Assembly: GCA_039803205.1 (NCBI GenBank)
Contig: JBDRYB010000001.1
Location: 23,998 to 87,997, forward strand
Direction: 5' to 3'
Origin: a candidate division WOR-3 bacterium
GTDB taxonomy: Bacteria; Hydrothermota; Hydrothermia; JBDRYB01
Length of the DNA: 64,000 bases
Numbering within the stretch: the first letter of the stretch is position 1; each line of letters starts with the position of its first letter. Shown one piece after another: positions 11,830-42,468 of this stretch. A model generated the notes under the pieces. The model did not search any database, was not told the origin of the DNA, and was given only the letters and a program-made list of their open reading frames with translations. The position numbers and the translations under genes are program-made.

Positions 11830-11843
11830 AATTATATCCTTCA

Positions 11844-22373: not shown

Positions 22374-22389
22374 ATTATACACCTCCCCT

Positions 22390-22641
22390 TCATTCCCTCT
22401 CCTCCATCTCATACCAGAACCTCTCTATTACCGGATTGGTGAGGAGTCTGCGGGACACATCCTCTATCTGAGCGCGCGCTGAGGCCTCGTCCGGAGCCTC
22501 AAGCGAAAACCGAACTATCTTTCCAACGCGCCCCTCTGAGACCGAAAGCCCAAGCCGCCTCATCGCGGCCTCAACAGCCATGCCCTGTGGATCTCTGAGA
22601 TCGTCGTGGGGCAGAATGAAGACATGAACCAGGTATCTCAT
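22390..22641 (-). CDS. purS: phosphoribosylformylglycinamidine synthase subunit PurS
   Basis: 83 aa with typical PurS sequence; adjacent to purC. Confidence 0.85.
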   Translation of the reverse strand: MRYLVHVFILPHDDLRDPQGMAVEAAMRRLGLSVSEGRVGKIVRFSLEAPDEASARAQIEDVSRRLLTNPVIERFWYEMEERE

Positions 22642-25934: not shown

Positions 25935-25942
25935 TATGAGGT

Positions 25943-26476
25943 ATGGCCAAAATAAGACAAAATGTGCTTTCCGGAATAGGCAAGCTCTTTCTGAGAGCCG
26001 CGAAACGAGGCCTCATGCCAAAGAGGATCGCTTATACACTCGTCGGTCTCGCCACATCCCTTACAGGCGCGTCAAAAGGCCCCTGCGCTGTGATGTGCTA
26101 TGAGGTTCCACCAACAGAACCGTGGATCTCTAGGGTTCTGATCACCAAGAATCCGCTGAGGGGCAAATTCAGGCTAACAGCCACCATAAAAAGCAACGAG
26201 AGGCCTGTGGGCGGTGCTGATGTCAATTTTTGGGTATGGAAGGATGGCCAGGCAGAGGTGTTTCGCGTTGTCCCCATGAACCCGGCTGATGGGGCGTTTG
26301 ATTCTCTAACGGAGGAGGCATATGCCGATCTGGCCCTATGGGGATGGCCCCAAGGAACGAAGATGAACATTTCCGCTTACGACAAGGATGGGAATCACGG
26401 CACCCCACTCAGGATTGGCGTTGAGGTGATGTTCGGGATCCTTTCATTTGAATGCGAGGAGATAGTGGGCTATTGA
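25943..26476 (+). CDS. hypothetical protein
   Basis: 177-aa ORF whose end overlaps the start of the downstream radical SAM/SPASM gene. Confidence 0.35.
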   Translation: MAKIRQNVLSGIGKLFLRAAKRGLMPKRIAYTLVGLATSLTGASKGPCAVMCYEVPPTEPWISRVLITKNPLRGKFRLTATIKSNERPVGGADVNFWVWKDGQAEVFRVVPMNPADGAFDSLTEEAYADLALWGWPQGTKMNISAYDKDGNHGTPLRIGVEVMFGILSFECEEIVGY

Positions 26477-27498
26477 GCGACAAACCAGTTCTCGCGGCCG
26501 CTTTTGAGACAACTCCCAGGTGCAACGCCAACTGTTTGTATTGTTATAATGTCTGGAAGGCTCATCCGGACTATCCAAGGGGGGAACCGGACGCGGAGGG
26601 TCTCCTCCGGGTCCTTGATGCCATCCTTAAGAGCGAGCGGGTGACCATCGTGAGCCTAACCGGCGGAGAGCCACTGCTTCTGGGCGATCTCATCCTTGAG
26701 ATGGGCGCTATGGCGAGGCTTTCAGGAAAATCCGTGAACCTCGTCACCAACGGTTCTCTTATCAGCAAAGGCTTTGCCAAGAACCTCAAGAGGCTCAGCA
26801 TAAGGCCCGTAGAGATAACCCTCCTATCAGCAAGGGAGGAGTTGCACGATTCCTTGCAAAGAGCGAGGACATTCCGGAGCGCAGTTAGCGCCATAAGGAC
26901 AGTGGCTGATGTCGGCGGGGAAGCAATAGTTGGCATAGTCGGAACGAAAGCAAACATTCCCTTTCTCTCCGAGACCCTTGAATTCGCAAAGACCCTCGGA
27001 GCCAAGGGCGCCATGTTCACCAGGTTCAACCCCGGCGGCCAGGGGCTTAGGCACTGGCGGGAGCTCGGGCCTTCCAAGGAGGAACTCAGGTCAGCCATAA
27101 AAACCCTTATGAAATTTGCCGACGAAAACCCAAACCTGACTATAACCTGCGGCGTTCCTATTCCCCCATGCGTTCTAGGTTTCACTGACTACGGAAGGGT
27201 AAAGATGGGTTATTGCAACGCTGGGGGCGATCTCATAGCCATAGATTGGCTCGGAAACCTCCGTCCGTGCAACCATTCCTCCCTTATAGTGGGGAACATA
27301 CTCAAGGTGCCCCTTGATGAGCTTCTGGAATCAAAGCGGTTAAAGGATTTCATGCTCCCTGTGCCTAAGATGTGCGTCGGTTGCCAGTTCTACGATCTAT
27401 GCAAGGGGGGTTGCCGGGCCGCGGCATTTGAGATGGCTTGGTGGCTCAGGAAGGAAAGGTCTGCTGGGTCCATCCGGTTTTCCGGACACACCATCTAG
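26452..27498 (+). CDS. radical SAM/SPASM domain protein
   Basis: CNANCLYC radical SAM motif; SPASM cysteines (CNAGGD...LRPC, CVGCQFYDLCKGGC). Confidence 0.8.
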   Translation: MRGDSGLLSDKPVLAAAFETTPRCNANCLYCYNVWKAHPDYPRGEPDAEGLLRVLDAILKSERVTIVSLTGGEPLLLGDLILEMGAMARLSGKSVNLVTNGSLISKGFAKNLKRLSIRPVEITLLSAREELHDSLQRARTFRSAVSAIRTVADVGGEAIVGIVGTKANIPFLSETLEFAKTLGAKGAMFTRFNPGGQGLRHWRELGPSKEELRSAIKTLMKFADENPNLTITCGVPIPPCVLGFTDYGRVKMGYCNAGGDLIAIDWLGNLRPCNHSSLIVGNILKVPLDELLESKRLKDFMLPVPKMCVGCQFYDLCKGGCRAAAFEMAWWLRKERSAGSIRFSGHTI

Positions 27499-27575: not shown

Positions 27576-27657
27576 GCGAGGGTGGCGGAAAGGCAGACGC
27601 GCCAGATTTAGGATCTGGTGGGCTAATCCCGTGCGGGTTCAAGTCCCGCCCCTCGCA
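27576..27657 (+). tRNA. tRNA-Leu (anticodon UAG), type II with long variable arm
   Basis: Manual fold: acceptor GCGAGGG/CCCUCGC, anticodon stem CCAGA/UCUGG with loop UUUAGGA, T-arm GCGGG-UUCAAGU-CCCGC, discriminator A; the track ORF 27566.. runs through it. Confidence 0.85.
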
Positions 27658-27694: not shown

Positions 27695-28651
27695 ATGAAG
27701 GTTGCTGTTGTCGGAGCGGCTGGCCTGGTTGGAAGGACCATGCTTCGCGTCCTTGAGAAGAGGGGCTTTCCGGTCTCGGAGCTGGCGGCTTATGACAAGC
27801 TATCGGGAGAAAGTCTGCTCTTCCGCGGCAATAAGCACCTGTGCATCAGGTTAACTCCAACATCCGTCAGGGGTTTTGACCTCGCGCTTTTTTCGGCAGG
27901 TGCGGATGTCTCCCTGAAATACGCGCCCCTGTTTGCCAAAAAGGGCGCGCTAGTGGTTGACAATTCCTCCGCCTGGCGCATGCATCCCAAGGTTCCACTT
28001 GTCGTCCCAGAGGTGAACCCAGAGGCGCTCATGGATATTCCAATGGGCATCGTGGCCAATCCAAATTGTTCAACGATCCAGATGGTCGTGGCTCTCAAGC
28101 CCCTGGTTCGCTTCGGCATAAAGGAGGTCTTCGTGGCGACATATCAGGCGGTCTCAGGGGCTGGAAAGGACGGGATTGACGCGCTCATATCGGAAGAGAA
28201 GGGCAAGAGGTCGTCAAATTCCCCTCACCTCGGCCCAATTCACAGGAATGTCTTGCCCGGAATAGGAAACTTTGAGGAGGGTTTCTACGAGGAGGAGACG
28301 AAGCTCATCCGTGAGACAAAGAAAATAATGGGCCTTGATGTTCCCGTTCATCCGACCGCGGTGAGGGTTCCTGTGATAGCTGGCCACTCCGAGGCCGTTG
28401 CGGTAAGGCTAAAGAAGAAGGTAAGCCTTGAGGAAATAAAAGCTTCTATGGGAGAGCAGGAGGGCCTCGTCCTCAGCGATGGTTTTGTCACCCCGAAGGA
28501 GGCCGAGGGCAAGGATGAGGTCTTTGTCTCCAGGCTCAGATTTTCGCCTGATGATCCGAGGGTTCTCCTGATGTGGGTTGTCTCAGATAACCTTCTGAAG
28601 GGAGCCGCTCTCAACGCGGTTCAAATAGCAGAGAGGGCCCTATTGCGGTGA
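27695..28651 (+). CDS. asd: aspartate-semialdehyde dehydrogenase
   Basis: MKVAVVGAAGLVGRTML Rossmann N-terminus and Asd core; start at internal ATG 27695. Confidence 0.9.
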   Translation: MKVAVVGAAGLVGRTMLRVLEKRGFPVSELAAYDKLSGESLLFRGNKHLCIRLTPTSVRGFDLALFSAGADVSLKYAPLFAKKGALVVDNSSAWRMHPKVPLVVPEVNPEALMDIPMGIVANPNCSTIQMVVALKPLVRFGIKEVFVATYQAVSGAGKDGIDALISEEKGKRSSNSPHLGPIHRNVLPGIGNFEEGFYEEETKLIRETKKIMGLDVPVHPTAVRVPVIAGHSEAVAVRLKKKVSLEEIKASMGEQEGLVLSDGFVTPKEAEGKDEVFVSRLRFSPDDPRVLLMWVVSDNLLKGAALNAVQIAERALLR

Positions 28652-30277
28652 AAGAGGAGCGTCCCCGAACAGCCTCTTCCTCAGCCTGTTATAGTATTGC
28701 CTGTATTCGTCAATGTGGCGGTCATAGGGGAATTCGGGAAGGAGCTCTCCTTTCGCCAGCTCGCGGGCCCGGGCGAGGAGTTCCTCTTTCTCGGCGGGAT
28801 CCCGGGTCGCGTCAGCGAGCCTCATCAGGTTCTCAAGCTCGCCAAGGTCTGTCCAGACATCCTCAAGCTGGTAATAATCCCCCTTTTTGATGAGGAGATC
28901 AGGCCTACCTAAGTTCCGTCTGGCGACCACCATAGCTGTGTAGAGCAACTCCCTGGATCTTTCGTTGTATTTTCTTCTCGGCCATATCAGATAAAAAAGG
29001 TGATCGTAGGGCAATCTGTGTTTTGGTGAAAGGAGCAGATAGACGAATGCTCTGGCTGATTTCTTGTTCCGCCACTCGCTCAAATGAACCTCTCTTCGGT
29101 CGACAAATATCCTCATCTCACCGATCAAATGTGCCCTTATACCGGATTGTCTCCTCTGATCAACCCCATAGGTAAGAAGGGGATAAATTGCCTCAAGAAA
29201 CGGGCCTAAAATGGGATCACGACTCATAGCCCGGTAAGAAGGGGCAAGGGGAACCAAGAATCTCATGGCCTCATGGAAGACCGTACCGCCGTGCTTCCAT
29301 GCCAAAAACGCGGAGGAGAGACCTGTCACGAAAGCCTCTACTGGTTGATAAGCGTTAAGATAATCTCTGGCGGCCTTCAAAAGCTCATGAGGAAGGTCCG
29401 CTTTGTCCTCAGATAATAGGGCCTCTATCTCTCTTAGGGCCGCGAGCTCACCCAGTCCACCTTTTTTAGCAAAGTCCATGCACCTATCCACCATTTCCCT
29501 TGGAGGAGGCTCCAGACCAGCAAATCTAGCGATTTCAAGGGCTTTCGCACAAGGAAACGCTGAGTATGCTGAGCCTATTTCCAGATATCCCAGGGCTGAC
29601 TTCGTGTATAACTTCACCGCTCCTCCTAGATCCCCTAGCATCCTGAGAGCAAAACCCTTGACCTCCAGCAAGGCAGAGAGATGGCGCTTATCCTTTTCCG
29701 TTTTGATCAAGGATCTGAGCATATCAAGAGCCCTTTCCGGCTTGCCAGTTATTATGCTCAGAAGGGCCAGCAGATACCTGGCTCTGGGACTCTTTGACGA
29801 GGTTAGCGTGGGAAGAACTCCTTTTATATCCATGTAAAGGGTGTCGTATTCGGCTCTGAAAAACTTCAGGGAAAGGAGGTTCACTTTGGCAAATGACCAC
29901 AACTCCCTATCCTCAGCGTGCTCAGCTATGTCCAGGGCCTTTAAATAACAGTTCTCAGCAACCTCCATCTCCCCTGTTTGTCTGTAAACTAGCCCAAGCA
30001 TGCCATATATCCTTCCGGTCATCTCCGGTTCGCCGCGAACACGAGCGAGAAGCCTTCTCCCCTTTTTGATGGCTTCTGGAGCACGGGAACCCAGAACTGC
30101 GGCGCAGAAGTCCAAGAACGCAAAACCCAAAGGGTCCTCAGATTTCAGCTTTTCGACATAATTAGCAAAGGCTCCGGGGGAGCCTGTCTTCAGGATCTCT
30201 AGCCCTCTTTCAACCCTTTCTAAGAGCTTCACCCCGATATGATAAAATTCAGAATGGAGCAAATTCAAGTCGCGCAA
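28640..30277 (-). CDS. transcriptional regulator: N-terminal TPR-like domain plus C-terminal SARP/OmpR-like winged helix and short BTAD-like tail
   Basis: C-terminal WRNKKSARAFVYLLLSPKHRLPYDHLFYLIWP resembles winged-helix DNA-binding domains; paralog of 33844..35442; start is TTG, uncertain. Confidence 0.6.
   Translation of the reverse strand: MRDLNLLHSEFYHIGVKLLERVERGLEILKTGSPGAFANYVEKLKSEDPLGFAFLDFCAAVLGSRAPEAIKKGRRLLARVRGEPEMTGRIYGMLGLVYRQTGEMEVAENCYLKALDIAEHAEDRELWSFAKVNLLSLKFFRAEYDTLYMDIKGVLPTLTSSKSPRARYLLALLSIITGKPERALDMLRSLIKTEKDKRHLSALLEVKGFALRMLGDLGGAVKLYTKSALGYLEIGSAYSAFPCAKALEIARFAGLEPPPREMVDRCMDFAKKGGLGELAALREIEALLSEDKADLPHELLKAARDYLNAYQPVEAFVTGLSSAFLAWKHGGTVFHEAMRFLVPLAPSYRAMSRDPILGPFLEAIYPLLTYGVDQRRQSGIRAHLIGEMRIFVDRREVHLSEWRNKKSARAFVYLLLSPKHRLPYDHLFYLIWPRRKYNERSRELLYTAMVVARRNLGRPDLLIKKGDYYQLEDVWTDLGELENLMRLADATRDPAEKEELLARARELAKGELLPEFPYDRHIDEYRQYYNRLRKRLFGDAPLSPQ
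28665..28873. repeat. about 209-bp near-identical duplicated segment (copy A), 3' end of the regulator gene
   Basis: Direct comparison with 33860..34068 shows a constant offset of 5195 and about 6 mismatches. Confidence 0.9.
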
Positions 30278-30295
30278 GATGATAATATCATTTTG

Positions 30296-30327
30296 TTTCG
30301 GAACTTTTTCGGAGGATCGCTTATAAT
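30296..30327 (+). promoter_or_regulatory. direct repeats TTTCGGA at 11-bp spacing followed by a TATAAT -10 box
   Basis: TTTCGGA at 30296-30302 and 30307-30313, TATAAT at 30322-30327; AAAGGAG RBS and ATG 30356 downstream; divergent from the regulator gene. Confidence 0.5.
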
Positions 30328-30355: not shown

Positions 30356-31882
30356 ATGACAGAAGCATACACGCTAATAGGCCTTTTGGTGTCCCAGGTC
30401 TCTTTTGCTAGATCCTATGGAGGGCCTGATACTGAGAGCGTTCGTGGAATAGTCCAAACAACCGATGGAGGCTTCATTGTTGCGGGAGAGACAAAGAGCT
30501 TTGGGGCAGGGAGCTATGATTTTATGGCCATGAGGCTTCTGAGCACGGGGGATCCCTTCTGGGTAAAGACTCTCGGAGGGACCGGTGACGACAGGGCCTT
30601 CTCAGTAGCTCTGGCTATTGACGGTGGATGCGTCATCGTAGGAGAAACAAAGAGCTATGGCGTAGGGGACTATGATGTTTTGGTTATGAAGCTTGGCCCT
30701 GCTGGGGGATTCCGGTGGGCAAAAACCTATGGAGGGTTATTGCGAGAAAGAGGCACCTGCATCAAGCCAACCAGCGATACGGGATACATCCTCGCGGGAT
30801 GGACGGTTAGCTCAGGCCAGGGGTCCGCGGATCTCCTCGTGATGAAAATGGATTCAGCGGGCAATCGCGTCTGGACCAGGACATTTGGAGGTGACACCTC
30901 TGATTACGCGCATCAAGTGATACAGACCCAGGATGGAGGCTTCTTGGTTGCGGGAACGAGTAGGAGCTTTGGGGCAGGCGACTTTGATTTTCTCGTGCTC
31001 AAGCTCAACAGCTCTGGCACGCTGAGCTGGGCCAGAGCAATTGGTGGCCCGGGCATAGAAGACGCCAGGATCCTGAGCCAGACTACGGATAATGGCTACA
31101 TAGTCGGTGGGTGGACGAACAGCTTTGGCAGTGGAGACTACGATGTTCTCCTTGTGAAGTTGAATTCATCCGGAGGTTTTCAGTGGGCAAAAACCTATGG
31201 GGGTGCCAGCCTTGATTGGGGGACATCCGGCATCCTCCTCCCGGACGGGGGTTTCCTCGTTGTAGGAGTCACTTTGACTTACGATCCCGAAGGCGATCTA
31301 TTTCTTCTCAGGCTGGACCCGGCAGGGAATCCTGATTGGCTTAAGGTTCTCAAGGAGGAGGGAGATGGGGTAAGTGGCGCGACTACTGTGATACAAACTG
31401 GAGATGGTGGTTTCGCGGTTGGAGGTTGGAAGGGTGACTCGTGGGATTTTCTGGTCATAAAGACCGACCAAGACGGAAACTATGACGAAGACTCCAATTG
31501 CATGAAGCCCGACATCCTTACAAGCCTGACCATTATGCCCAATCTTGAAACTCTGACGCTCGGGGCAAGCTGGGTTCCTCTAGTATCCAACCCAAACCCA
31601 TCCCAGAATACGCCCTCCTTGACGATGACAAACGTGACCTGTGAACCTGTTTATGAGGAAGTTGGGGAATCTCTGGTTGAGCCGAATGACATAGTCTGCT
31701 ATCCGATTCCAAGGGCCATTGCGTTTATTTCTTCCTGTGCCGCGGAGATAAGTATCTACTCATCTGACGGGTGCGTGGCCTATTCGGGCACTCTAGAGAA
31801 GGGCAAAAATATGATACCCATTGACCGAGGCATTTACTTTTGGCAGGCAGGAGCTTATAAAGGAAAAGCCGTTGTGAGGTAA
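30356..31882 (+). CDS. secreted beta-propeller repeat protein (SBBP-like repeats) with C-terminal sorting-domain-like tail
   Basis: Multiple repeats of about 50 aa (T.DGGF.VAG.T.SFG.G..D.L..KL...G...W.KTYGG); signal-like N-terminus; C-terminal beta-sandwich-like tail resembling T9SS-type CTDs. Confidence 0.6.
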   Translation: MTEAYTLIGLLVSQVSFARSYGGPDTESVRGIVQTTDGGFIVAGETKSFGAGSYDFMAMRLLSTGDPFWVKTLGGTGDDRAFSVALAIDGGCVIVGETKSYGVGDYDVLVMKLGPAGGFRWAKTYGGLLRERGTCIKPTSDTGYILAGWTVSSGQGSADLLVMKMDSAGNRVWTRTFGGDTSDYAHQVIQTQDGGFLVAGTSRSFGAGDFDFLVLKLNSSGTLSWARAIGGPGIEDARILSQTTDNGYIVGGWTNSFGSGDYDVLLVKLNSSGGFQWAKTYGGASLDWGTSGILLPDGGFLVVGVTLTYDPEGDLFLLRLDPAGNPDWLKVLKEEGDGVSGATTVIQTGDGGFAVGGWKGDSWDFLVIKTDQDGNYDEDSNCMKPDILTSLTIMPNLETLTLGASWVPLVSNPNPSQNTPSLTMTNVTCEPVYEEVGESLVEPNDIVCYPIPRAIAFISSCAAEISIYSSDGCVAYSGTLEKGKNMIPIDRGIYFWQAGAYKGKAVVR

Positions 31883-31900
31883 CCCACTTGTAGTCACTAG

Positions 31901-31948
31901 CCCCGGCCGGTAAAATCATTGCACCTCCCGTCCCGGCCGGGGGTTTTT
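31901..31948. terminator. hairpin terminator element, copy 1 (10-bp GC stem, 22-nt loop, T5)
   Basis: CCCCGGCCGG - taaaatcattgcacctcccgtc - CCGGCCGGGG g TTTTT between convergent genes. Confidence 0.65.
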
Positions 31949-31968
31949 ATTTCCCAGATGAGAAGCCC

Positions 31969-33804
31969 TTATTGCCTATCCCAACCCAAACCCCACATTC
32001 CCCTGGTCCAAGCCCTGCCGTTCCTGCAGGGGGTTCCTGCTGGATAGTTGTCCTTGCCTGATAGGTCAAGGAATATGCCAACGCCTCCAGCGTCCCGGGC
32101 CCTGTTCGCATCGCCGAGGCCTATGTCCTCCCTGGCGGAATATGTGTCATCCCCATCAGAATCCACGAAGATCCCAACGGAATTCGTCAAACCTATACCG
32201 AGGCCGCCGGAGACCTGGTAGTTGTCGTTGCCGCGCTTGTCAATTAGCCAGCCAACAGCGAGGTCGTGGCCCTCGCCCTGGGATGGGCCGTATCTTGAAT
32301 AATAGTGATCCGAGCCGGAGTAATCCCCGAGAAGTCCGACCGAGAGGTGGATTCCGGAGCCCTGCGCGTATTGCACAGCGGAATAGAAGTCGTCGCCAGA
32401 CAGATCGAGGAGAATGCCTGCCGAATACCAGTATGAACAGCCCTGCGCGTATACCTCGCCCTGATACAGGTCGTTGCCCTCGCGGTCCAAAAGAACTGAG
32501 ATCCCCCCAGAAGCGCGTGGTCTAATTCCGATTGAATAGCCTTGCGCGAACGCCCTGTAGTTGTGTTCAAGGAGGGGTTTGTGCAGGTATTCTCCTCCAG
32601 CGTAATAGACATCATCTCCCCCCACCTCGTCCAAGATAGCGCAGCCCTTGACCGATGAGAAGGCCTGAGCGCAAGAGAATGCCCTCATAACATCATCCCC
32701 TCCGCCCTCGTGCATGTAGGAGACCCCGAACATGGCCGCGGATTGTGCGAAAAAGCCGGAGTAATAGAGATCGTCTCCGGCCTTATCCGAGAGAAAACCC
32801 GCGCCGAAAAGCCCCATACCCATTGTGTAATGAGGGGCCCGATACAGGTCATCCCCTGAGAGGTCAACCAGGGCACCGTAGCCCATGAGGCCAGCGCCAA
32901 GGGAGACGAAATCTTCAGCCAGATAAGCGTCATTGCCGCAAAGATCAATCACGGCCGAGAGGGGCCTCCCCAGAAACCCAACCGATCCCCCAGGCCTCCC
33001 GTAGTAGGCGTCTGAGCCACCCTTGTCCAGTATAAGGTGATATAGGGCTGTGGTCTCGGCCGGATGAACATCATCCCCTTCTCCTTTGACCAAAACCCTC
33101 CACTGGCCAGCGGAATAGCTGCCCTCAGGAATTCCCTGTGAGAACATCGTGATCTCCTCTACCCCCATTGAGAACGCTAGGGCTCCGAGGGCTAGCTCAC
33201 GCCAATCAACCAGAGCCGCCAACTCCAGTATCCTTGAAGAGTCATCGCACCAGGCTGTGTCCACCGGAAACCCAAATTCCCTGAGCAGACAGCCCCGCAG
33301 AGTGTCCAGAAGGGTATCACCCTCGTCCGCCCAAAGGGAAAGGGAGTAGTAGAGGAGGGTATCAATCTGGGGCCTGCTCAGCCGCGAAAAGGCTTTTTGC
33401 CTGTGAGCATCAGCCTCGTCCCAGGAGGCTCTGAGGTATGCGAGGCCAGCTTCCCATCCCTTTTTGCCCGCCATGGCCTTTTCAAATCTCTTTCGCATCT
33501 CGTTCGTATCCTTGGGAGAGAGCCCGACATCGAGAAGGGAAAAGCCGAGGAACATGGTGGATGTCGGATTACCGGTTGATCTTGCTATTTCGGCCCTGCA
33601 GGAGTCAGCAAAATGAGGCACATCCATGGGCTTCGCCATCAATCTGTCAACCGTCTTGAGCCTGAATGAGTCGCGGTCGGCCCAGTCCTTGTTGTATGAG
33701 AGGTCCTCTGGGGCCAGATTAATGTAAGCTAGGGCCTGGATGATGGCACTTGTTTCGGCTGTATCAAGGAGAAACTGCGAGAGAAGCAAAAGCGTCATGT
33801 TCAA
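31969..33804 (-). CDS. secreted repeat protein (short G/D-rich repeats, possible beta-helix)
   Basis: Repeated pattern of about 22 aa (G.D.Y....Y.QG.G....G.L.D.SG.D.Y); hydrophobic N-terminus. Confidence 0.5.
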   Translation of the reverse strand: MNMTLLLLSQFLLDTAETSAIIQALAYINLAPEDLSYNKDWADRDSFRLKTVDRLMAKPMDVPHFADSCRAEIARSTGNPTSTMFLGFSLLDVGLSPKDTNEMRKRFEKAMAGKKGWEAGLAYLRASWDEADAHRQKAFSRLSRPQIDTLLYYSLSLWADEGDTLLDTLRGCLLREFGFPVDTAWCDDSSRILELAALVDWRELALGALAFSMGVEEITMFSQGIPEGSYSAGQWRVLVKGEGDDVHPAETTALYHLILDKGGSDAYYGRPGGSVGFLGRPLSAVIDLCGNDAYLAEDFVSLGAGLMGYGALVDLSGDDLYRAPHYTMGMGLFGAGFLSDKAGDDLYYSGFFAQSAAMFGVSYMHEGGGDDVMRAFSCAQAFSSVKGCAILDEVGGDDVYYAGGEYLHKPLLEHNYRAFAQGYSIGIRPRASGGISVLLDREGNDLYQGEVYAQGCSYWYSAGILLDLSGDDFYSAVQYAQGSGIHLSVGLLGDYSGSDHYYSRYGPSQGEGHDLAVGWLIDKRGNDNYQVSGGLGIGLTNSVGIFVDSDGDDTYSAREDIGLGDANRARDAGGVGIFLDLSGKDNYPAGTPCRNGRAWTRGMWGLGWDRQ

Positions 33805-33843
33805 AGGTTAAACCAGAAGGAGGCTGGAAGGCAAGGACGGCTT

Positions 33844-35442
33844 TCAGGTCTGATTATCTCCGAACAGCCTCTTCCTCAGCCTGTTATAGTATTGCCTGTA
33901 TTCGTCAATGTGGCTGTCATAGGGGAATTCGGGAAGGAGCTCGCCTTTCGCCAGCTCGCGGGCCCGGGCGAGGAGTTCCTCTTTCTCGGCGGGATCGCGG
34001 GTCGCGTCAGCGAGCCTCATGAGGTTCTCAATCTCTCCAAGGTCTGTCCAGACATCCTCAAGCTGGTAGAAGTCGCCTCGTTTGGTGAGCAATTGTGGTT
34101 TGCCCAGATTCCTGCGGATAGTGTAAATAGCAGTATAAAGCCACTTCCTCGTCCTGGCGTCGTATCTCCTCCTGGGCCACAGCAGATACGCAAGGTGATC
34201 CTGGGATATTCTGTGTTTAGGCGAGAGCAAGAGGTAGAGCAGAGCCATCAACGCCCTTGAGTTTCGCCACGCCCTAAGGGAAACCTCTTCCCCATCCACC
34301 TGGAGCATGAACTCACCAAGCAGGCTCGCCCTCACGCCCTGCACTGTCCTTTCGCCCTTCCCATATCTAAGCAGGGGTTCCACGCTGATCATGAATTCTC
34401 CTAGCAAAGGGTCGCGCCTGAACCCTGGGTGAAGAGGCAAGAGGGGCGCGAGTAACTTGAGGATCTTCGGGAAAACCGGGTGGTCGTCTTGCCATGCAAA
34501 AAGGGCTGCTGTGAGGCCTGTAAGGATGACCTCTATGTTCTGGTTGACCCTATAGTATCCGAGTGCGGCGTCAAAAAGGAGCTCGGTGGATCTTTTGGGG
34601 TCCTCACACAGGAGTGCTTCGATCTCCTGGGCCCCTGCCTTCTCTCCTGACGAACCCCTCCTGGCAAGTGCCAGACATCTCCTTACAAGCTTCTTGGGAG
34701 GAGGCTCCAGCCCAGCGAGTCGCGTGAGCTCAAGAGCCTTGGCACAAGGGAAGGTCGCGTAGGCAGAACCGAATTCAATGGCGATGTTCATGGACTCCAC
34801 ATATAGATCCCTCGCCTCCTGTAGTTTCCCCATCATCCTGCTGGCCAATCCCTTCATCTCTGTAGCACCCAAAAGGACTATACTGCCGCCCTCGCTGATG
34901 ATGGAATCCAAGAGTTTCAATGCCTTCTCTGGGTTTCCACGGATTATCTCAAGTGCGGCCACTAGGTACTTGGCACCCCCGGTGATCTCTGGACTCCTCA
35001 CCCGCGCGAGGAATCCCCTTGCTTCGTTGTAAAGCGGTTCGTATTCAGCTCTAAAGAATCTGTTGGTCAGAAGTCTCAATCTTGCAATGGAGGCCAGGGT
35101 CAGGTCTCCCGCCTGTCCGGCCATATCCTCTGCTCTAACAAAGTATCCATCGGCTGCATCCAGTTCTCCTATTAGTTCGTAAGCGGTGCCAAGGCAGTTG
35201 AAAAGAAAACTCGCAAGCCTGGGCTTGCCCGAAACTCTTGAAATGAGCCTGGTTCCTTTCCTTATGGCGCTAGAATTGTGATTGTAGACCGCCAGGCGAA
35301 CCTCCAGTAGTTCCGCGGCCAGAAGGTCTTCAAGCTTAAGGCAACGAATGTATCTCATTAAGTCATCCAACTGGCCTGACTTCATCATTGTTAGGCCGCG
35401 TTCAATCCTATCCAAAGTATCCACGTCTAGAGTATAAACCAA
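33844..35442 (-). CDS. transcriptional regulator paralog (TPR-like plus SARP/OmpR-like winged helix)
   Basis: Same architecture as 28640..30277; last 70 aa almost identical; start is TTG, uncertain. Confidence 0.6.
   Translation of the reverse strand: MVYTLDVDTLDRIERGLTMMKSGQLDDLMRYIRCLKLEDLLAAELLEVRLAVYNHNSSAIRKGTRLISRVSGKPRLASFLFNCLGTAYELIGELDAADGYFVRAEDMAGQAGDLTLASIARLRLLTNRFFRAEYEPLYNEARGFLARVRSPEITGGAKYLVAALEIIRGNPEKALKLLDSIISEGGSIVLLGATEMKGLASRMMGKLQEARDLYVESMNIAIEFGSAYATFPCAKALELTRLAGLEPPPKKLVRRCLALARRGSSGEKAGAQEIEALLCEDPKRSTELLFDAALGYYRVNQNIEVILTGLTAALFAWQDDHPVFPKILKLLAPLLPLHPGFRRDPLLGEFMISVEPLLRYGKGERTVQGVRASLLGEFMLQVDGEEVSLRAWRNSRALMALLYLLLSPKHRISQDHLAYLLWPRRRYDARTRKWLYTAIYTIRRNLGKPQLLTKRGDFYQLEDVWTDLGEIENLMRLADATRDPAEKEELLARARELAKGELLPEFPYDSHIDEYRQYYNRLRKRLFGDNQT
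33860..34068. repeat. about 209-bp near-identical duplicated segment (copy B)
   Basis: Matches 28665..28873. Confidence 0.9.
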
Positions 35443-35479
35443 TTGGGGAATCCACTGCTATATGCGCATTTGTCCTAAC

Positions 35480-35514
35480 TTGCTAGAGTTTTGCTAGAAA
35501 ACCCTACTTATAAT
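35480..35514 (+). promoter_or_regulatory. direct repeats TTGCTAGA at 11-bp spacing followed by a TATAAT -10 box
   Basis: TTGCTAGA at 35480-35487 and 35491-35498, TATAAT at 35509-35514, then GGAGG RBS and ATG 35551. Confidence 0.5.
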
Positions 35515-35550
35515 TTAGGGCCTTATGAAAAAGAGACACGGAGGTGTCAG

Positions 35551-37155
35551 ATGATAGGGATGATAGGAATCTTTATCGGTGCAACCACGGTCAACTGGCC
35601 CTGCTGGGGCGGAGACCCGGAGCGCCAGGGATTGCAGACCACTCCAGGAGCGTTCATAAGCGCTCCTTCAACAAAGTGGAAAGTCCAGACCTACCAACTC
35701 GTCAGGTGGGAATTCTCAGCGATAGCCGATGTTGACGGCGACGGCCAGATGGAGGTCCTCGTAGGATGCTACAACGGATACCCCGGCTTCTTTTGCATCA
35801 ATGGCTCCACGGGCACAGTTGAGTGGTCGGTTAACACATACCTAAGCGGAGTGCTTGCGGGTCCGGCCGTAGCTGATGTGGACAACGATGGCCAGAATGA
35901 GGTGATCTTCGCTAGCAGTGGTTCTGGTGCGGGAGACGATACGGTCTATTGTTACAGCGGAATGGGCTCTCGGAAGTGGGCCTTTTGTAATCCTTCTTCT
36001 GGGAGATACTGGTCCTCGCCGGCCATCGTTGATCTAGATGGAGACGGCAATATGGAGGTGTTAATAGGCAATTCTGACGGGGGGACAGACACTCTGAGCA
36101 GAAGAAGCCTCTATTGCCTGAATGGCTCTAATGGCACCCAGAAGTGGTCATACATTTCAGGCAACTCGGTGGACTGTGCATCCCCATCTGCGGCTGATGT
36201 TGATGGCGATGGCAAGCTAGAAGTGCTCTTCGTGAACTGGGCTAATAGGCTCTTCTGCATCAGCGATACCGTGGTGGCCGGCAACGACACATGCAGGGTG
36301 GAGTGGACATACCCATTCGGTGCTAGCGGTGGGATACAGTGCACCCCGGTTCTTCTCGATCTTGATGGCGACGGTAAGATGGAGATAGTTACTGCCAACG
36401 CGAATTTTAACTCTAATAACCTCTACTGCTTGAACACAGCCACCATCTCAGGCAACGATACAGCGGTTGTCAAGTGGACCTTCTCTGCTGGAAGATATAT
36501 ATACTCCTCTCTATCCGCCGCAGACGCTGACGGAAATGGTATCATAGATGTTTTCGTTGGTAGTTGGGACTCCCTATTATACTGCCTGGACGGAGCAACT
36601 GGCGCCAAGAAGTGGCAATTCGGAAAGGTGCCGGAGATACTCTATACACCTATATCAGTGATGGACGCGGACGGCGCTCATCCCAGCGGCGACCCTGGGC
36701 TTGAGGTTCTTCTTACAGCCAAGGACACCCTATACTGTGTGAACGCGGAGGATGGCTCTCTGCTTTGGAAAGCGAGGGTGGCGCCCCGTGTCAACACACC
36801 GTTCTCAGGGGACATAGACGGAGATGGGGCTTCTGAGATAATAGTCGGTGCAGACAGCGCGTTGTACGCGCTTGATACAGCAAGTCCGGTTTACGAGGGC
36901 ATAGGTGACAATAACAACAACGGAGACCTCGTCCTGTTCCGGTTCACAAACAACCGCTTTTATCTTTATCTGCCAGAAGAGGATGGGATCTCAATCGCTC
37001 TTTACGACGCTGGAGGGCGATTCGTTAAAAGTATCTTTGAAGGCCATCTGAGCTCTGGTAGCCACAACTTTGAGCTGAGTTCGGAGGCCAAGGGGGTCTA
37101 CATCGCTGTTCTCAGGCACAACGAGGGCATAAAGACCCTGAAGATAGCGAGGTAA
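35551..37155 (+). CDS. secreted FG-GAP/PQQ-like beta-propeller protein with C-terminal sorting-domain-like tail
   Basis: Repeated D(V/L)DGDG..E(V/I) and LYC(L/I)...G motifs; hydrophobic N-terminus; C-terminal tail similar to that of 37245..38753; start at ATG 35551 after GGAGG. Confidence 0.6.
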   Translation: MIGMIGIFIGATTVNWPCWGGDPERQGLQTTPGAFISAPSTKWKVQTYQLVRWEFSAIADVDGDGQMEVLVGCYNGYPGFFCINGSTGTVEWSVNTYLSGVLAGPAVADVDNDGQNEVIFASSGSGAGDDTVYCYSGMGSRKWAFCNPSSGRYWSSPAIVDLDGDGNMEVLIGNSDGGTDTLSRRSLYCLNGSNGTQKWSYISGNSVDCASPSAADVDGDGKLEVLFVNWANRLFCISDTVVAGNDTCRVEWTYPFGASGGIQCTPVLLDLDGDGKMEIVTANANFNSNNLYCLNTATISGNDTAVVKWTFSAGRYIYSSLSAADADGNGIIDVFVGSWDSLLYCLDGATGAKKWQFGKVPEILYTPISVMDADGAHPSGDPGLEVLLTAKDTLYCVNAEDGSLLWKARVAPRVNTPFSGDIDGDGASEIIVGADSALYALDTASPVYEGIGDNNNNGDLVLFRFTNNRFYLYLPEEDGISIALYDAGGRFVKSIFEGHLSSGSHNFELSSEAKGVYIAVLRHNEGIKTLKIAR

Positions 37156-37161
37156 AAACAT

Positions 37162-37224
37162 GACCGGCCGCGGAAACTTCGCACCCCCGGCACCTCCCGG
37201 ATGGACCGCGGCCGGTCCGGTTTT
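37162..37224 (+). terminator. hairpin terminator-like element (12-bp GC stem, 32-nt loop, T-rich tail)
   Basis: GACCGGCCGCGG ... CCGCGGCCGGTC perfect inverted repeat followed by cggTTTTg; loop contains gcacctcccgg as in the two other hairpin elements. Confidence 0.5.
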
Positions 37225-37244
37225 GTGAAAACAAGGAGATTACA

Positions 37245-38753
37245 ATGTCTGACATGTATATCATAGGAATGCTGGCCTCCCAAATCCTTGGGACCTGGCC
37301 TATGTGGGGCTATAACCCAGCACACTGGGCTGTCCAACCGGTGCCTGGCACTCATACAACTGCTCCGGTTATGAAGTGGAGTATCTCAACTGGTGATCAG
37401 GTTCAGTGGCTCTTTTCTGCCACAGGTGATGTTGATCGTGATGGCAGAAATGAGGTTCTGGCTGGCTCTTTTTCTGGAACTTTTTACTGCTTGGACGGAA
37501 CCACCGGGGCAACCAAATGGAGCTTTAACGTCGAATCCGAATCACCGATAGAAACCTGCCCGGCTCTTGCGGACATGGCTGGAAATGGTTCAGTAGAGGT
37601 AGTCTTCGCCACTTGGGGCGGAGAAGTCTATTGCCTTGATGGGACGGACGGGAGCGTAAAATGGCAATACGTAACCACCTACTACGATCAATACCACCAC
37701 GGCCCGGTTGTCGTTGATTGCGATGCTGATGGTGATCTGGATGTTGTTATCGGAAACATATATGGAAGTCTATACTGCTTCGATGGTGAGACGGGAACGC
37801 TGATCTGGAACGCTAACATGAGCTCCACAGAAAACTCTTCTCCTGCCGCCGGTGATATAGATGGAGATGGCAAGATAGAGATAGTTATAGGAGGCTCATC
37901 GGGGACCTATTCTTTGAACGGTTCAAACGGAGCCTTGGAGTGGTTGGCTTCAACGGGTATCTGTGCTAATTCATCTCCAGGAATAGCTGACTGCGATGGA
38001 GATGGTCTCGCTGAGGTGATTATAGGTTCTGAGGATTATAATATCTACTGTCTTGATGGTCAAACCGGAGCCGAGAAGTGGCGTTATTCTACCGGAAACA
38101 GGGTTTGGTCTTCTCCTGTGATCCTTGATGCTGACGGAGACGGGCTTCTTGAGATAATAATAGGGAGCTTTGACGGCTACGCTTACTGTCTGAGCGGGGA
38201 ATCCGGAACCCTCCAGTGGAGAACGCAGGTCGGCGACATCCGCGTGGGCATCCCTGCTGGGGATGTGGACGGCGATAACAGATATGAGGTGATCATAGGG
38301 AATACTAGTGGATACACATGCCTCAACGGTGAGGACGGCTCTGTTCTTTGGAGATCAGCACCATCTAGCGGCGGTAGGTCCGTTTACCTCGCGGATGTTG
38401 ACATGGACGGGTGTGTTGAAATTGTGGGTGGGTCAACCGGTTATGATATATATGTGCTTGATGATCCCGGAAACTCGTCGGGTTGTATGAGTATGGGAAA
38501 GGATGAAGAGGGGTATGGCCCAGATTCTCCTGAATTCAAGCCCATGGGTAAAAGTTTATATCTTTTTCTCCCCGAGGATGAGCAGGTTTCTCTGAGCCTA
38601 TACGATGCCTCAGGTAAGCTCGTTCAAAAGGTATATGATGGGGTCCTGAGGCAGGGAAGTCACACCTTCAGCCCCAACATAAACGCTAAAGGTATCTACT
38701 TCGCGGTTATGAGGTATCAGAAAGGGATGAAAACCCTGAAGATTGTGCGATAA
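37245..38753 (+). CDS. secreted FG-GAP/PQQ-like beta-propeller protein with C-terminal sorting-domain-like tail
   Basis: Paralog of 35551..37155; repeated D.DGDG and YCLDG motifs; C-terminal ...KGMKTLKIVR tail. Confidence 0.6.
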   Translation: MSDMYIIGMLASQILGTWPMWGYNPAHWAVQPVPGTHTTAPVMKWSISTGDQVQWLFSATGDVDRDGRNEVLAGSFSGTFYCLDGTTGATKWSFNVESESPIETCPALADMAGNGSVEVVFATWGGEVYCLDGTDGSVKWQYVTTYYDQYHHGPVVVDCDADGDLDVVIGNIYGSLYCFDGETGTLIWNANMSSTENSSPAAGDIDGDGKIEIVIGGSSGTYSLNGSNGALEWLASTGICANSSPGIADCDGDGLAEVIIGSEDYNIYCLDGQTGAEKWRYSTGNRVWSSPVILDADGDGLLEIIIGSFDGYAYCLSGESGTLQWRTQVGDIRVGIPAGDVDGDNRYEVIIGNTSGYTCLNGEDGSVLWRSAPSSGGRSVYLADVDMDGCVEIVGGSTGYDIYVLDDPGNSSGCMSMGKDEEGYGPDSPEFKPMGKSLYLFLPEDEQVSLSLYDASGKLVQKVYDGVLRQGSHTFSPNINAKGIYFAVMRYQKGMKTLKIVR

Positions 38754-38769
38754 TTCGCCAAATTAAAAA

Positions 38770-38816
38770 GCCCCGGCCGGTAAAATCATCGCACCTCCCG
38801 TTCCGGCCGGGGTTTT
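38770..38816. terminator. hairpin terminator element, copy 2 (near-identical to 31901..31948)
   Basis: CCCCGGCCGG - taaaatcatcgcacctcccgtt - CCGGCCGGGG TTTTT; 2 loop mismatches versus copy 1; between convergent genes. Confidence 0.65.
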
Positions 38817-39772
38817 TACACCTCCTCAGCCCAGGCCTCCCAGCACCAACTGTTCTCCGCGAACCAGGAAACGGTCTCCGAGAGCGCCTGATCAAAACTG
38901 AGCAAGGGCTCCCAGCCGAGCGCCTTTATCTTCCCCGAATCCATAAAATACCGGACATCGTGCCCAGGCCTATCCTCTACATGCTGAATGAGAGCATGGC
39001 TTTTCCCTAGGAGATCAAGTATCCTCTCCGCAACCGAGATGTTTTCTTCCTCGTGACCAGAGCCTATGTTGTAGACCTCGCCAGGGGATCCCTTCTCAAG
39101 AACAAGTAAAATAGCCCTCGCTATATCATCTGCCCAGAGCCACTCCCTCCGCTGTTTCCCCGTGCCGTAGACCGGCAGGGGTTTGTCCAGGATGGCCCTC
39201 AAGGTCATCCTCGGGATGAACTTCTCCGGATGCTGGAAGGGACCAAGGCCGTTGCACGGCCGGACGACTATTGCCTCGATGCCGTAAGTTTTCTGGTATG
39301 CCCTGACGAACGCCTCAGCCCCGACCTTGCTCGCTGAGTATGGCGAGGAGGGCAAAAGGGGCCAGTCCTCCCTTGCCGAGCCTTTCTCAACCGGGCCATA
39401 GACCTCATCCGTTGAGATGTGAAGGAAAAGCCCCTTCTTTTCCCACGCGAGCCTTGCGGCCTCCAAGAGGGTCTGGGTTCCTAGGACATTCGTCCTTATA
39501 AAGCCTCCGGGCCTCGCTATTGACTTATCAACATGGGTCTCAGCGGCAAAGTGCACGATAGCATCGTGATCAACGAGGAGGCCAACGGCAAGGTTTTGGT
39601 CCAGGATGTCGCCGTGGACGAAGTGAAAATGGACACCCTTGAGCCTCCTCATATCCCCAGCGTATGTGAGCTTGTCCAAGACGGTTATCTCCCAACCAGG
39701 TCGCTCGCGCGCGGCAAGTCGCACGAAAGCTGAACCGAGAAAACCAGCGCCGCCAGTGACTATAACGCGCAC
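38816..39772 (-). CDS. rfbB: dTDP-glucose 4,6-dehydratase
   Basis: MRVIVTGGAGFLGS Rossmann N-terminus, YSASK catalytic motif, RmlB-like length. Confidence 0.85.
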   Translation of the reverse strand: MRVIVTGGAGFLGSAFVRLAARERPGWEITVLDKLTYAGDMRRLKGVHFHFVHGDILDQNLAVGLLVDHDAIVHFAAETHVDKSIARPGGFIRTNVLGTQTLLEAARLAWEKKGLFLHISTDEVYGPVEKGSAREDWPLLPSSPYSASKVGAEAFVRAYQKTYGIEAIVVRPCNGLGPFQHPEKFIPRMTLRAILDKPLPVYGTGKQRREWLWADDIARAILLVLEKGSPGEVYNIGSGHEEENISVAERILDLLGKSHALIQHVEDRPGHDVRYFMDSGKIKALGWEPLLSFDQALSETVSWFAENSWCWEAWAEEV

Positions 39773-40680: not shown

Positions 40681-42468
40681 ATGTTGTATAACATAGCTTT
40701 GGCCGTGGCCGTGGCTTACCCATCGGCTTTCGGGCCATCAGGATACTACGATGTGATATCGCCCTCAGTGATGGAAAGGTTTGAGAACCGGGCCTCTCTG
40801 ACGGTCGGCGGCTACTTCGGGTACATAGGAGGAACCTTCTGGGAGTATGAGAACTACGGAGGCGCTTCTGAGGAAGAGGTCATTTACCTCGGGAGGGCTG
40901 GCGTCTGCTACACTCCGTCGGACTGGTTTGAGATATTCTCCTTGCTCAGAGCTATTGAGTGGTATCCTGGCGCTGGATCGGATGGCATAGGAGGCTTCTC
41001 CGACGCGGATCTCGGAATGAAGATAAGGCTCTTCAAGGCAGGCATGCTCACGACCGGAATAATGGGCGTTCTCACCTTGCCCACGGGCGAAACCCAGACA
41101 TCTCCAATAGTTGTAGGCGGGAACAACCTCGGGACCTTCGTGATAACCGACAACGAACTGATATACGGTGGTTCTGTCTTGGCTGAGTTGGATTTCGGCA
41201 AGATCCACGATCTCACTGCTTTCCGCATAGCCCTGAACGCTGGATATTACACCGGAGGCGGATATGTCCCTGCTGGTGGAAAAGATACCATGGCTGATCC
41301 CCTGAGGCTCGGGGGGGCATTCATCCTCTCATCTCGCTACTTGGACTACATCGTGGAGGCCAAGTATTACGGAAGAACGAGCATGAAGGATAAGGCCTTC
41401 GTGACGCCAGCGCTCAGACTCAGGCCTTTTGAGGGAATTGGGCTTTCAGTCCTGGGCGGCGTCAACCTCAACACCACATACTATGTGCCCGAGAATCACT
41501 ACGAGTGGAACTACGATGTGGTAATGGGCATAGGCCTCATCACCCCTCTCTTCAAGACAGAGGAGCTGGCGCCTGGCGGCGGCGTGATGGGCAAGGTGTT
41601 TGATTCAAGGACAAAGGAACCCCTGAAAGCCAAGGTAAAGGTCGTTGAGGCAAACATGACCCTGGAGTCCGACACCAACGGCATCGTCCGGATAAAGCAC
41701 CTGCCTGAGGGCGTCTACACCCTCGTGGCTGAGAAGGATGGATACCGCAAGACCTACTCCCTGGTCAACATCAAGCGCAGGTCCCAGAACATGGTTGAGC
41801 TTCCCATGGACCCCGCGGCCGTCCTGGTTAAGGGAATAGTGATAGACTCCCTGACATCCGGAGTGGTTGAGGGAGCGAAGGTGGCTTTTGCTGGACCGGA
41901 GTCCAAGGAGGTGACATCCGGTGCCGCGGAGTTTGAGGTCTCGCTCAAGCCCGGAGCCTATTGGGTCTCTGCTTCAAAGGAGGGCTACTTCACGAAATAC
42001 ATGGATGTTGCCCTTTACGAGCCGAAGTTCGTGAAGATAGTCATTGGAAGGCCCATGATCCGCGAGCCAAAGCTCATAGAGACCGTCAACTTCGCGACCG
42101 CCTCCGCGGTCCTCTCGTCCAGCGACAAGGCCAAGCTGGACAAGGTTGGCAAGATGCTTCAGGAGGACCCAGCGGCCATAATCGTGATAACGGGCCACAC
42201 GGACAGGCACGGCTCAGTGTTCTACAACGAGCTCCTCTCAGAGAAGCGCGCCAAGGCTGTCAAGGATTACCTGGCTTCAAAGTATGACATACCTGATGAA
42301 AGGATGAGGATTGACTGGTATTCCGAGTTCCAAAAGGCCGGGAGCTCTGACTCCGGAAACCGCAGGGTTGAGATATACCTGCTCAAGCCCATAGAGGCTG
42401 AAAAGGCCAAACCCGAGGAGAAACCAAAAGAGGGCGGCAAGGAGCAACCCAAGGAAGGCGGCAAGTAG
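40681..42468 (+). CDS. OmpA family outer-membrane protein (N-terminal beta-rich domain, carboxypeptidase-regulatory-like middle, C-terminal OmpA-like domain)
   Basis: C-terminal peptidoglycan-binding OmpA-like block (NFATASAVL...ITGHTDRHGSVFYNELLSEKRAKAV); GGAGG RBS; Lys/Glu-rich tail. Confidence 0.75.
   Translation: MLYNIALAVAVAYPSAFGPSGYYDVISPSVMERFENRASLTVGGYFGYIGGTFWEYENYGGASEEEVIYLGRAGVCYTPSDWFEIFSLLRAIEWYPGAGSDGIGGFSDADLGMKIRLFKAGMLTTGIMGVLTLPTGETQTSPIVVGGNNLGTFVITDNELIYGGSVLAELDFGKIHDLTAFRIALNAGYYTGGGYVPAGGKDTMADPLRLGGAFILSSRYLDYIVEAKYYGRTSMKDKAFVTPALRLRPFEGIGLSVLGGVNLNTTYYVPENHYEWNYDVVMGIGLITPLFKTEELAPGGGVMGKVFDSRTKEPLKAKVKVVEANMTLESDTNGIVRIKHLPEGVYTLVAEKDGYRKTYSLVNIKRRSQNMVELPMDPAAVLVKGIVIDSLTSGVVEGAKVAFAGPESKEVTSGAAEFEVSLKPGAYWVSASKEGYFTKYMDVALYEPKFVKIVIGRPMIREPKLIETVNFATASAVLSSSDKAKLDKVGKMLQEDPAAIIVITGHTDRHGSVFYNELLSEKRAKAVKDYLASKYDIPDERMRIDWYSEFQKAGSSDSGNRRVEIYLLKPIEAEKAKPEEKPKEGGKEQPKEGGK

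Follow-up and report, generated by a model that had tools for sequence, protein, structure and literature searches.

Two probable copies of a lineage-specific cassette that pairs a SARP-like regulator with tail-bearing beta-propeller genes in a candidate division WOR-3 bacterium

What do two paralogous regulator genes do in the midst of a set of genes for large beta-propeller proteins? The question was raised by a locus at 28.6 to 38.8 kb of a 64,000-nt stretch of DNA from a candidate division WOR-3 bacterium (contig JBDRYB010000001.1); this whole stretch is referred to below as the window. The locus consisted of six genes: two regulator genes, an SBBP-type propeller gene, a G/D-rich gene, and two FG-GAP/PQQ-type propeller genes. 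We consider it likely that the region represents two copies of a cassette that is specific to one WOR-3 lineage and that combines a SARP-like activator, a private operator, and propellers carrying a C-terminal tail. This reading was based on homology, protein fold, promoter architecture, a kept pairing of regulator and propeller genes, and a regulator family with a narrow distribution and many copies. An initial annotation of the DNA had proposed two paralogous regulators interleaved with propeller genes in a duplicated regulator-plus-effector cassette. Both proposals held up: the six open reading frames (ORFs) were found at or near the places where it had put them, and the divergent regulator/propeller pairing recurred in every related WOR-3 locus for which the sequence was long enough.

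The gene for regulator 1 (28640..30232, minus strand; 530 aa from a GTG at 30232) was divergent from the gene for effector 1, an SBBP/DUF5122 ("delta-60") beta-propeller (30356..31882, plus strand; 508 aa). The gene for regulator 2 (33844..35424, minus strand; 526 aa from a GTG at 35424) had the same arrangement with the gene for effector 2, an FG-GAP/PQQ-like beta-propeller that we refer to as propeller A (35551..37155, plus strand; 534 aa). Propeller A was followed by effector 3, a second FG-GAP/PQQ-like beta-propeller referred to as propeller B (37245..38753, plus strand; 502 aa).

The DNA between each regulator gene and its propeller gene contained a predicted operator-promoter. For the SBBP gene (30292..30327, plus strand), it was composed of an upstream direct repeat TTTGTTTCGGA, a downstream direct repeat ACTTTTTCGGA, an 8-bp spacer GGATCGCT, and the -10 hexamer TATAAT; for the FG-GAP operon (35479..35514, plus strand), the corresponding elements were CTTGCTAGAGT, TTTGCTAGAAA, ACCCTACT, and TATAAT. 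The effector promoters contained no recognizable -35 hexamer, and a sigma-70 scan did not call them. In the case of SARP-regulated promoters, the rule is that the repeats are 11 or 22 bp apart and that the 3' repeat is 8 bp from the -10 element (PMC10936776). The AfsR box, for example, is a 22-bp sequence made up of two 11-bp repeats that overlap the -35 element (PMC10936776). Both window promoters and those of most related cassettes fit the SARP spacing rule.

Both strands of all sequences were scanned for a composite pattern consisting of two 11-mers with at least 8 of 11 positions matching, 8 bp, and a -10-like hexamer. On the plus strand of the 64-kb window, the pattern was found twice, only at the two effector promoters, and shuffled sequences yielded 0.5 matches per window. 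In an automated count of the regulator-effector intergenic regions of the window and the related loci, exact direct repeats of at least 7 nt were found at an offset of 11 in 10 of the 14 regions; the propeller A box was an eleventh case, which the count missed through the ORF boundary that was used. Of the remaining offsets between 4 and 30, only 22 had a repeat, a single one, and the shuffle mean in this count was 0.08.

The sequence of the repeat differed from cassette to cassette. The window's own population provided a third cassette, and its box, TGTTCTAG, was different again. Promoters of one cluster had a common core (TGGAGA three times in locus L002 and T(C/G)TTTCAG twice in L015). The FG-GAP cassettes L004 and L017 had GTTGGAT in common, and the start of the recognition helix (TREWLYVA) was near-identical in their regulators. 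We considered a code in which like recognition helices pair with like repeats, and there were too few pairs for such a claim. Footprinting on the L004/L017 intergenic alignment was also set aside; the two sequences were 86% identical throughout, and thus the alignment said nothing specific to the box. An invertible or phase-variable promoter was considered on account of a serine recombinase beside the L002 regulator, and it was rejected because the window contained no recombinase and no inverted repeats flanking the promoters.

A regulator gene divergent from a tail-bearing FG-GAP or SBBP propeller gene was found in L002, L004, L005 (three times), L007, L014, L015, and L025, and N-terminal sequences indicated the same divergent pairing in L008, L010, and L020. 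One exception was L018, in which the effector was an unknown lipoprotein. Judging from these sequences, the cassette design, with a different repeat in each cassette, recurs in most of the related WOR-3 cassettes examined. In one metagenome-assembled genome (MAG), QZM1.Bin.61 (L008-L021), the family contigs were mostly 1.5-6.4 kb long and often ended in or near regulator or effector genes. Such short contigs fit assembly breaks caused by conserved cassette ends.

The two regulators were 51% identical (E 1e-170), and regulator 2 was identical to ABIM74_04225, an NCBI protein from a WOR-3 MAG. All 69 of the 69 close regulator homologues were from WOR-3, with several per MAG, and two family members were labeled "AfsR/SARP family" by NCBI. 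Among 185,579 species genomes (one genome per species), only two contained the family; both were WOR-3 MAGs, with 10 and 4 loci, respectively. A hidden Markov model (HMM) search of 1.84 billion cluster representatives yielded about 40 full-length members, followed by generic TPR proteins and a few proteins with the C-terminal domain only.

As for protein structure, the regulators had TPR matches in Pfam, and regulator 1 could be divided into an N-terminal TPR part and a C-terminal SARP-like part with a winged helix-turn-helix (wHTH) and a BTAD. In the full-length AlphaFold2 model of regulator 2 (pLDDT 90), a TPR superhelix (residues 9-360) was followed by a beta-sheet/winged helix and three helices, and the SARP-like domain corresponded to residues 370-527. 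A fold search with the full-length model was dominated by TPR proteins, with the best TM-scores going to Rap/NprR peptide-sensor domains (TMt 0.56-0.65), and a separate model of the last 172 residues was therefore built. The sole significant PDB match of this C-terminal model was the SARP domain of AfsR (8hvr_I) within a transcription initiation complex, aligned over 170 columns with an E of 4.4e-4 and a TMq of 0.64. In addition, a member of a sister subfamily (593 aa; 31-32% full-length identity) scored 45.9 bits with Pfam BTAD (cutoff 22.1). Based on these models, the regulators are predicted to be SARP-like activators, with a wHTH and a BTAD at the fold level.

The longest ORF of regulator 1 extended to 30277, and the GTG at 30232 was chosen based on the family alignment and a -10 element located 6 nt upstream. 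That element (TATCAT, 30239-30244) was part of a predicted promoter (30239..30268, minus strand; -35 TTGAAT and an 18-nt spacer) identified in a promoter scan. A different -10 element, TATTAT beside the box, was a mirror-image scan match and was dropped, as the family alignment and the kept layout gave TATCAT. For regulator 2, the -10 element TATACT (35431-35436) was also located 6 nt ahead of the start. Most family members examined (in the window and L002-L020) had a -10-like hexamer (TAAAAT, TATAAT, TATACT, or TATCAT) 6-7 nt before a consensus ATG or GTG, and most had no Shine-Dalgarno sequence. This combination suggests that the regulator mRNAs are leaderless.

The 3' ends of the two regulator genes formed a 256-nt direct repeat (28662..28917 and 33857..34112, both on the minus strand; 90% identical) that encoded near-invariant C-terminal helices. 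Over the last 210 nt, 96% of the bases were identical, as were 93% of the same-residue codons, for which other pairs within the family had a median of 51%. The excess in codon identity points to gene conversion at the 3' ends, on top of strong protein conservation. By analogy with AfsR, whose SARP domain makes extensive contacts with RNA polymerase (PMC10936776), the near-invariant helices could be an equivalent polymerase contact surface.

The repeat types that the initial annotation had assigned to the propellers were confirmed by family models. The SBBP protein scored 34.9 bits with Pfam DUF5122 (cutoff 27); its matches to the TIGR02608 delta-60 repeat (E 6e-16) and to a Leptospira SBBP lipoprotein model (E 1.5e-12) were both partial and below the cutoffs. 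Propellers A and B scored 113 and 93 bits with FG-GAP_3 and 75 and 59 bits with FG-GAP, respectively, and they also matched PQQ_2 and related propeller models. The two proteins were 35% identical (E 1e-98). The effector starts given in the initial annotation (30356 and 35551) are correct: GGAG was located 6-8 nt upstream of each, and longer ORFs would reach into the promoter elements. A nine-codon upstream ORF, MKKRHGGVR (35525-35554), started a few bases past the predicted propeller A transcription start site, and its TGA overlapped the ATG of propeller A (ATGA); none of the other cassettes that we examined showed such an ORF. For propeller B, the upstream sequence was checked, and neither an operator box nor a promoter of its own was found; second genes in tandem had no box. 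Propeller B is probably encoded as the second gene of an operon with propeller A.

All three effectors had a hydrophobic N-terminal stretch (9-residue Kyte-Doolittle mean of 1.8-2.6) that was kept in relatives. Very short, uncharged, hydrophobic N-termini of this kind were seen in several envelope proteins of the window (30356, 35551, 37245, 33798, 40681, and 14877-15998), some with a hydrophobic-Ser-Gln motif (LLVSQ, MLASQ, LLLSQ, or ILSQ). Lipoproteins at 61756 and 62490 had ordinary MRR/MRG signals.

The initial annotation had also stated that the three propellers end in a similar tail, and that the tails resemble the C-terminal domains of type IX secretion system (T9SS) cargo. In propellers A and B, the C-terminal ~89 residues (encoded at about 36886-37152 and 38484-38750) scored 29.8 and 32.2 bits with TIGR04183 (cutoff 23), the model accepted as defining type A T9SS signals (PMC11205867). 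The SBBP tail (about 31613-31879) was divergent: it scored 15.2 bits (E 0.016), which was below the cutoff, it was also under the Pfam cutoff, and it was 24-25% identical to the other two tails. When 8 SBBP-family tails were compared to 10 FG-GAP-family tails by profile-profile alignment (hhalign), they matched with 94% probability (E 1.3e-7), and 6 of the 8 SBBP-family tails had weak TIGR04183 matches. The similarity among the three tails therefore stood at the profile level and not at the level of close identity. The resemblance to type IX C-terminal domains stood for the two FG-GAP proteins on TIGR04183; it failed for both of these proteins on Pfam PF18962 (19 bits, below the cutoff of 27, with equally weak FlgD_ig matches) and for the SBBP protein on TIGR04183.

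The tail matches ended at the last or second-last residue in the three window proteins and in all aligned relatives, and the family tails ended with K-x-hydrophobic-hydrophobic-R/K. When tail-derived HMMs were run against the six-frame translation of the window, only the three effectors matched. One related protein (L005:13440-15050) had SBBP repeats joined to an FG-GAP-type tail, which indicates that the tail is a module, and many homologues from other phyla carried PF18962. On profile evidence, we describe the tails as type A T9SS-like sorting domains, two above the NCBI cutoff and the SBBP tail a divergent homologue.

After each of the three window effector genes came a GC-rich hairpin, in which GCACCTCCCG was part of a 22-nt loop, and then a T-run. 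The hairpin between the convergent SBBP and G/D-rich genes (31899..31950, assigned to no strand) had the stem CCCCGGCCGG and a folding energy of -23.1 kcal/mol, and the repeat was 94% identical to 38769-38817. The hairpin in the gap between propellers A and B (37156..37224, plus strand) had a folding energy of -35.3 kcal/mol (z -3.1), and the terminal hairpin, also between convergent genes and assigned to no strand (38766..38822), had a folding energy of -28.6 kcal/mol (z -4.9). The 10-mer GCACCTCCCG occurred exactly three times in the window, only in these hairpin loops. The element was also found after effectors in L002, L004, L005, L007, and L014, and the loop motif was kept across genomes in which the coding regions were only 35-45% identical. 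The loop contained CACCUCC, which we take to be the anti-Shine-Dalgarno sequence. The hairpin could serve to terminate transcription, to affect RNA stability, or to control translation.

The remaining gene of the locus encoded the G/D-rich repeat protein that the initial annotation had placed between the propellers. The gene was real (31969..33798, minus strand; 609 aa from an ATG at 33798), and its product had a hydrophobic N-terminus, a helical region of ~230 aa, and GxDxY-type repeats. It was not tail-bearing cargo of the module, because searches of Pfam and NCBIfam yielded no family match and no sorting-domain match. It belonged to a separate, widespread family: we found 661 relatives, which came from WOR-3, Latescibacteria, Cloacimonetes, Edwardsbacteria, as well as other groups and were in unrelated contexts, and most were 820-1020 aa long and fused to C-terminal HEAT repeats. 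In the WOR-3 clade, the proteins had no HEAT part and always followed a regulator paralogue; the family as a whole was widespread in FCB-type (Fibrobacteres-Chlorobi-Bacteroidetes-type) candidate phyla. In L009 (1534-3369) and L018 (3038-4870), a regulator paralogue was followed directly by an orthologue that was 84-86% identical, and the regulators in these two loci had different boxes and effectors. In L022, the G/D-rich gene adjoined a Peptidase_M6 gene. From this distribution, I treat the G/D-rich protein as a separately conserved exported protein, a passenger or bystander of the cassette, whose gene is possibly co-transcribed with regulator 2.

Several observations weighed against the cassette as described here. 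For the main regulator family, the sequence models were weak (in 6 of 12 members, a match to Trans_reg_C with E 0.005; in 1 of 12, a match to BTAD with E 0.019) and under the Pfam cutoffs for both domains, and a PDB sequence-profile search with the regulator C-terminus gave a weak OmpR-type match, CarR (E 0.047). The SARP domain was C-terminal in these regulators and is N-terminal in described SARPs. L011 and L013 had no box and no obvious divergent effector. A terminator-like hairpin preceded propeller B, and we therefore only assume that the two propeller genes are transcribed together. With respect to export, the effector N-termini were very short and uncharged, and the usual basic n-region was absent. 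None of the T9SS core components (SprA/Sov, PorV, PorU, and GldK/L/M/N) was encoded within the 64-kb window. An OmpA-family protein 1.9 kb downstream of the module (40681-42468) had CarboxypepD_reg domains and an OmpA C-terminal domain, with an N-terminus of the same kind as the three effectors; it scored 55 bits with the PorE model, far under the cutoff of 600. The T9SS has been described only for the FCB superphylum (PMC11205867), and NCBI taxonomy places WOR-3 (Caldifarciminota) in a separate phylum outside this superphylum. A literature search returned nothing that linked WOR-3 or Caldifarciminota to the T9SS or to secretion. Because no T9SS core gene was present in the window and the N-termini were short and uncharged, cell-surface display via a T9SS, which the initial annotation had raised, is something that we infer, and we regard the T9SS link itself as plausible from the sequences.

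These points bear on how the parts of the cassette could be read differently. The tails could be Ig-like beta-sandwich domains (FlgD-Ig/CTD fold) and not T9SS signals; their role would be that of stalks or anchors, or they would address the proteins to a different, novel outer-membrane pathway in a phylum lacking a canonical T9SS. The Por_Secre_tail score of 19 against a threshold of 27, the equally weak FlgD_ig match, the SBBP tail below both curated cutoffs, the absence of T9SS genes from the window, the lack of a literature tie between WOR-3 and the T9SS, and the placement of WOR-3 outside the FCB superphylum would all agree with this idea. However, two tails were above the curated TIGR04183 cutoff, the tail occupied the extreme C-terminus of every family member with its K-x-hydrophobic-hydrophobic-R/K ending, PF18962 was found in many homologues of other phyla, and one tail type was carried by unrelated propeller types (L005:13440-15050), as a modular sorting signal predicts; we consider the idea unlikely.

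It is less probable still that the G/D-rich protein belongs functionally to the module, as the initial annotation had implied, and forms a fourth co-regulated component at the surface or in the periplasm, such as a scaffold or chaperone for the propellers. Its gene was missing from eight other cassette loci, had no operator box upstream, and encoded no sorting tail; its relatives occurred in phyla without this regulator family, mostly as HEAT fusions in unrelated contexts, and the upstream regulators in three genomes carried different boxes and effectors. What spoke for such a role was its location on the strand of regulator 2, 45 nt downstream of that gene, the regulator-then-G/D-rich order kept at 84-86% identity in the L009 and L018 MAGs, and an N-terminus resembling those of other exported proteins. 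A third possibility is that the adjacent regulators bind the boxes and repress or autoregulate, or that the boxes serve another factor, and we judge it very improbable. Each box was located between divergent promoters, ~65-70 bp upstream of the start site of the regulator itself, so autoregulation is possible, and the near-consensus TATAAT element could give basal transcription without an activator. On the other hand, the box overlapped the -35 region and ended 8 bp from the -10 element, with direct repeats one helical turn apart, which is the geometry of SARP activation and not that of typical operator occlusion. Moreover, the effector promoters had no recognizable -35 element, and the near-invariant C-terminal helices fit a common polymerase contact of the kind that AfsR makes (PMC10936776).

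Under the activator reading, which we prefer, each regulator would be a cytoplasmic one-component activator in which the N-terminal TPR superhelix of ~360 residues serves as a sensor or partner-binding domain and the C-terminal SARP-type domain consists of an OmpR-like winged helix and a short BTAD. Two SARP domains would sit side by side on the 22-bp box, which is made up of two 11-bp direct repeats and located 8 bp upstream of the effector -10 element, and the bound dimer would stand in for the absent -35 contact and recruit RNA polymerase, as has been shown for AfsR. In this way, regulator 1 would read TTTCGGA and turn on the SBBP propeller gene, and regulator 2 would read TTGCTAGA and turn on propeller A, with propeller B expressed via read-through of the internal hairpin. 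The propellers would then be exported by a short Sec-type signal, and the type A sorting domain would guide them along a T9SS-like route, through the outer membrane or onto it; on the surface, they might act as ligand-binding or coat proteins. We infer the DNA binding and the activation, along with the signal to which the TPR domain responds, the route of secretion, and the role of the propellers at the surface.

The proposed system can be compared to several known ones. Like the actinobacterial SARPs (AfsR, ActII-ORF4, DnrI, and EmbR), the regulators appear to have an OmpR-type winged helix followed by BTAD helices, with a fold match to AfsR; their predicted operators have two 11-bp direct repeats with the 3' copy 8 bp away from the -10 element, and a poor -35 element, and the activator gene adjoins its targets. 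Unlike the SARPs, they have the TPR domain first and the SARP domain last (the inverse of the order in PMC10936776), no NB-ARC/NOD ATPase, a main-family BTAD of only ~60 residues, and sequence similarity under the Pfam cutoffs. The host also differs, being an uncultured WOR-3 bacterium; the targets are secreted propeller genes and not antibiotic clusters, and there are up to ten or more paralogues per WOR-3 genome, each with a private operator.

The RRNPP regulators (Rap, NprR, and PlcR) have an N-terminal HTH or phosphatase domain or a three-helix bundle ahead of a C-terminal, peptide-binding TPR domain, are accompanied by a nearby gene for their cognate secreted peptide, and are found in Firmicutes and their phages. 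The TPR superhelix of the WOR-3 regulators superposes on the Rap/NprR sensor domains, and both groups are one-component cytoplasmic regulators. The similarity, however, is at the fold level only (12-17% identity), and the DNA-binding domain belongs to another class and is located at the other end of the protein. No peptide gene beside either regulator was noticed among the listed ORFs (minimum length of 80 aa), and no dedicated search for small ORFs was made. Membership in the RRNPP group, which the Rap/NprR likeness had brought to mind, was rejected because the domain order and the DNA-binding domain were wrong and no peptide gene was seen.

In Bacteroidota, surface-protein and glycan loci are present as many paralogous loci with dedicated adjacent regulators (hybrid two-component systems, SusR, or ECF sigma/anti-sigma pairs for each polysaccharide utilization locus). 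From general knowledge, the cassette logic is alike, with one adjacent regulator per surface-protein locus. The regulator class and promoter mechanism are different, and the WOR-3 cassettes have no SusC/SusD-like genes or enzymes. With respect to the T9SS type A cargo of Bacteroidota, the likeness is a C-terminal beta-sandwich tail of ~70-90 residues that ends otherwise unrelated secreted proteins; two of the tails here pass TIGR04183, and the tail is modular across propeller types. In contrast to that cargo, the Pfam scores here were sub-threshold, the SBBP-type tail was divergent, and the N-terminal signals were short and uncharged.

Other features of the window were recorded as well. Three radical-SAM genes (10235-11626, 23812-25290, and 26452-27498), two with SPASM domains, were located upstream of the module, and small genes without a family match occupied the region between two of them (25263-26476); this could be a peptide-maturation cluster. 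The GC content of 20001-22000 was 0.416, compared to ~0.54 elsewhere; this segment, which covers two minus-strand genes (20197-22412), may have been acquired horizontally. A tmRNA gene with the tag peptide AEKAYAYA was found at 11841-12176. A tRNA-Leu gene (27576-27657) overlapped the longest-ORF start of an aspartate-semialdehyde dehydrogenase gene, and the true start of that gene is therefore probably further downstream.

A more far-reaching proposal, which we put forward as possible but doubtful, is that the paralogous cassettes form a library of orthogonal SARP-like activators, each with a private 11-bp repeat and an alternative propeller, that acts as a programmable means to remodel or vary the cell surface, with perhaps one coat protein expressed at a time. 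Gene conversion would keep the ends of the cassettes exchangeable, both at the 3' ends of the regulator genes and, on the opposite side, at the sorting tail and the conserved hairpin, and the CACCUCC loop could add post-transcriptional control.

SARPs and the substitution of a -35 element by a bound activator have been studied almost only in actinomycetes, and here the operator geometry and the fold were found in a distant, uncultured phylum. The results provide a testable regulatory code, from regulator to 22-bp box, for an organism that has not been grown, and a natural set of seemingly orthogonal activator/operator pairs that could be of use in synthetic biology. They also point to how a large family of tail-bearing propellers is controlled in these bacteria and, if T9SS machinery is confirmed, would extend T9SS-type sorting beyond the FCB superphylum.

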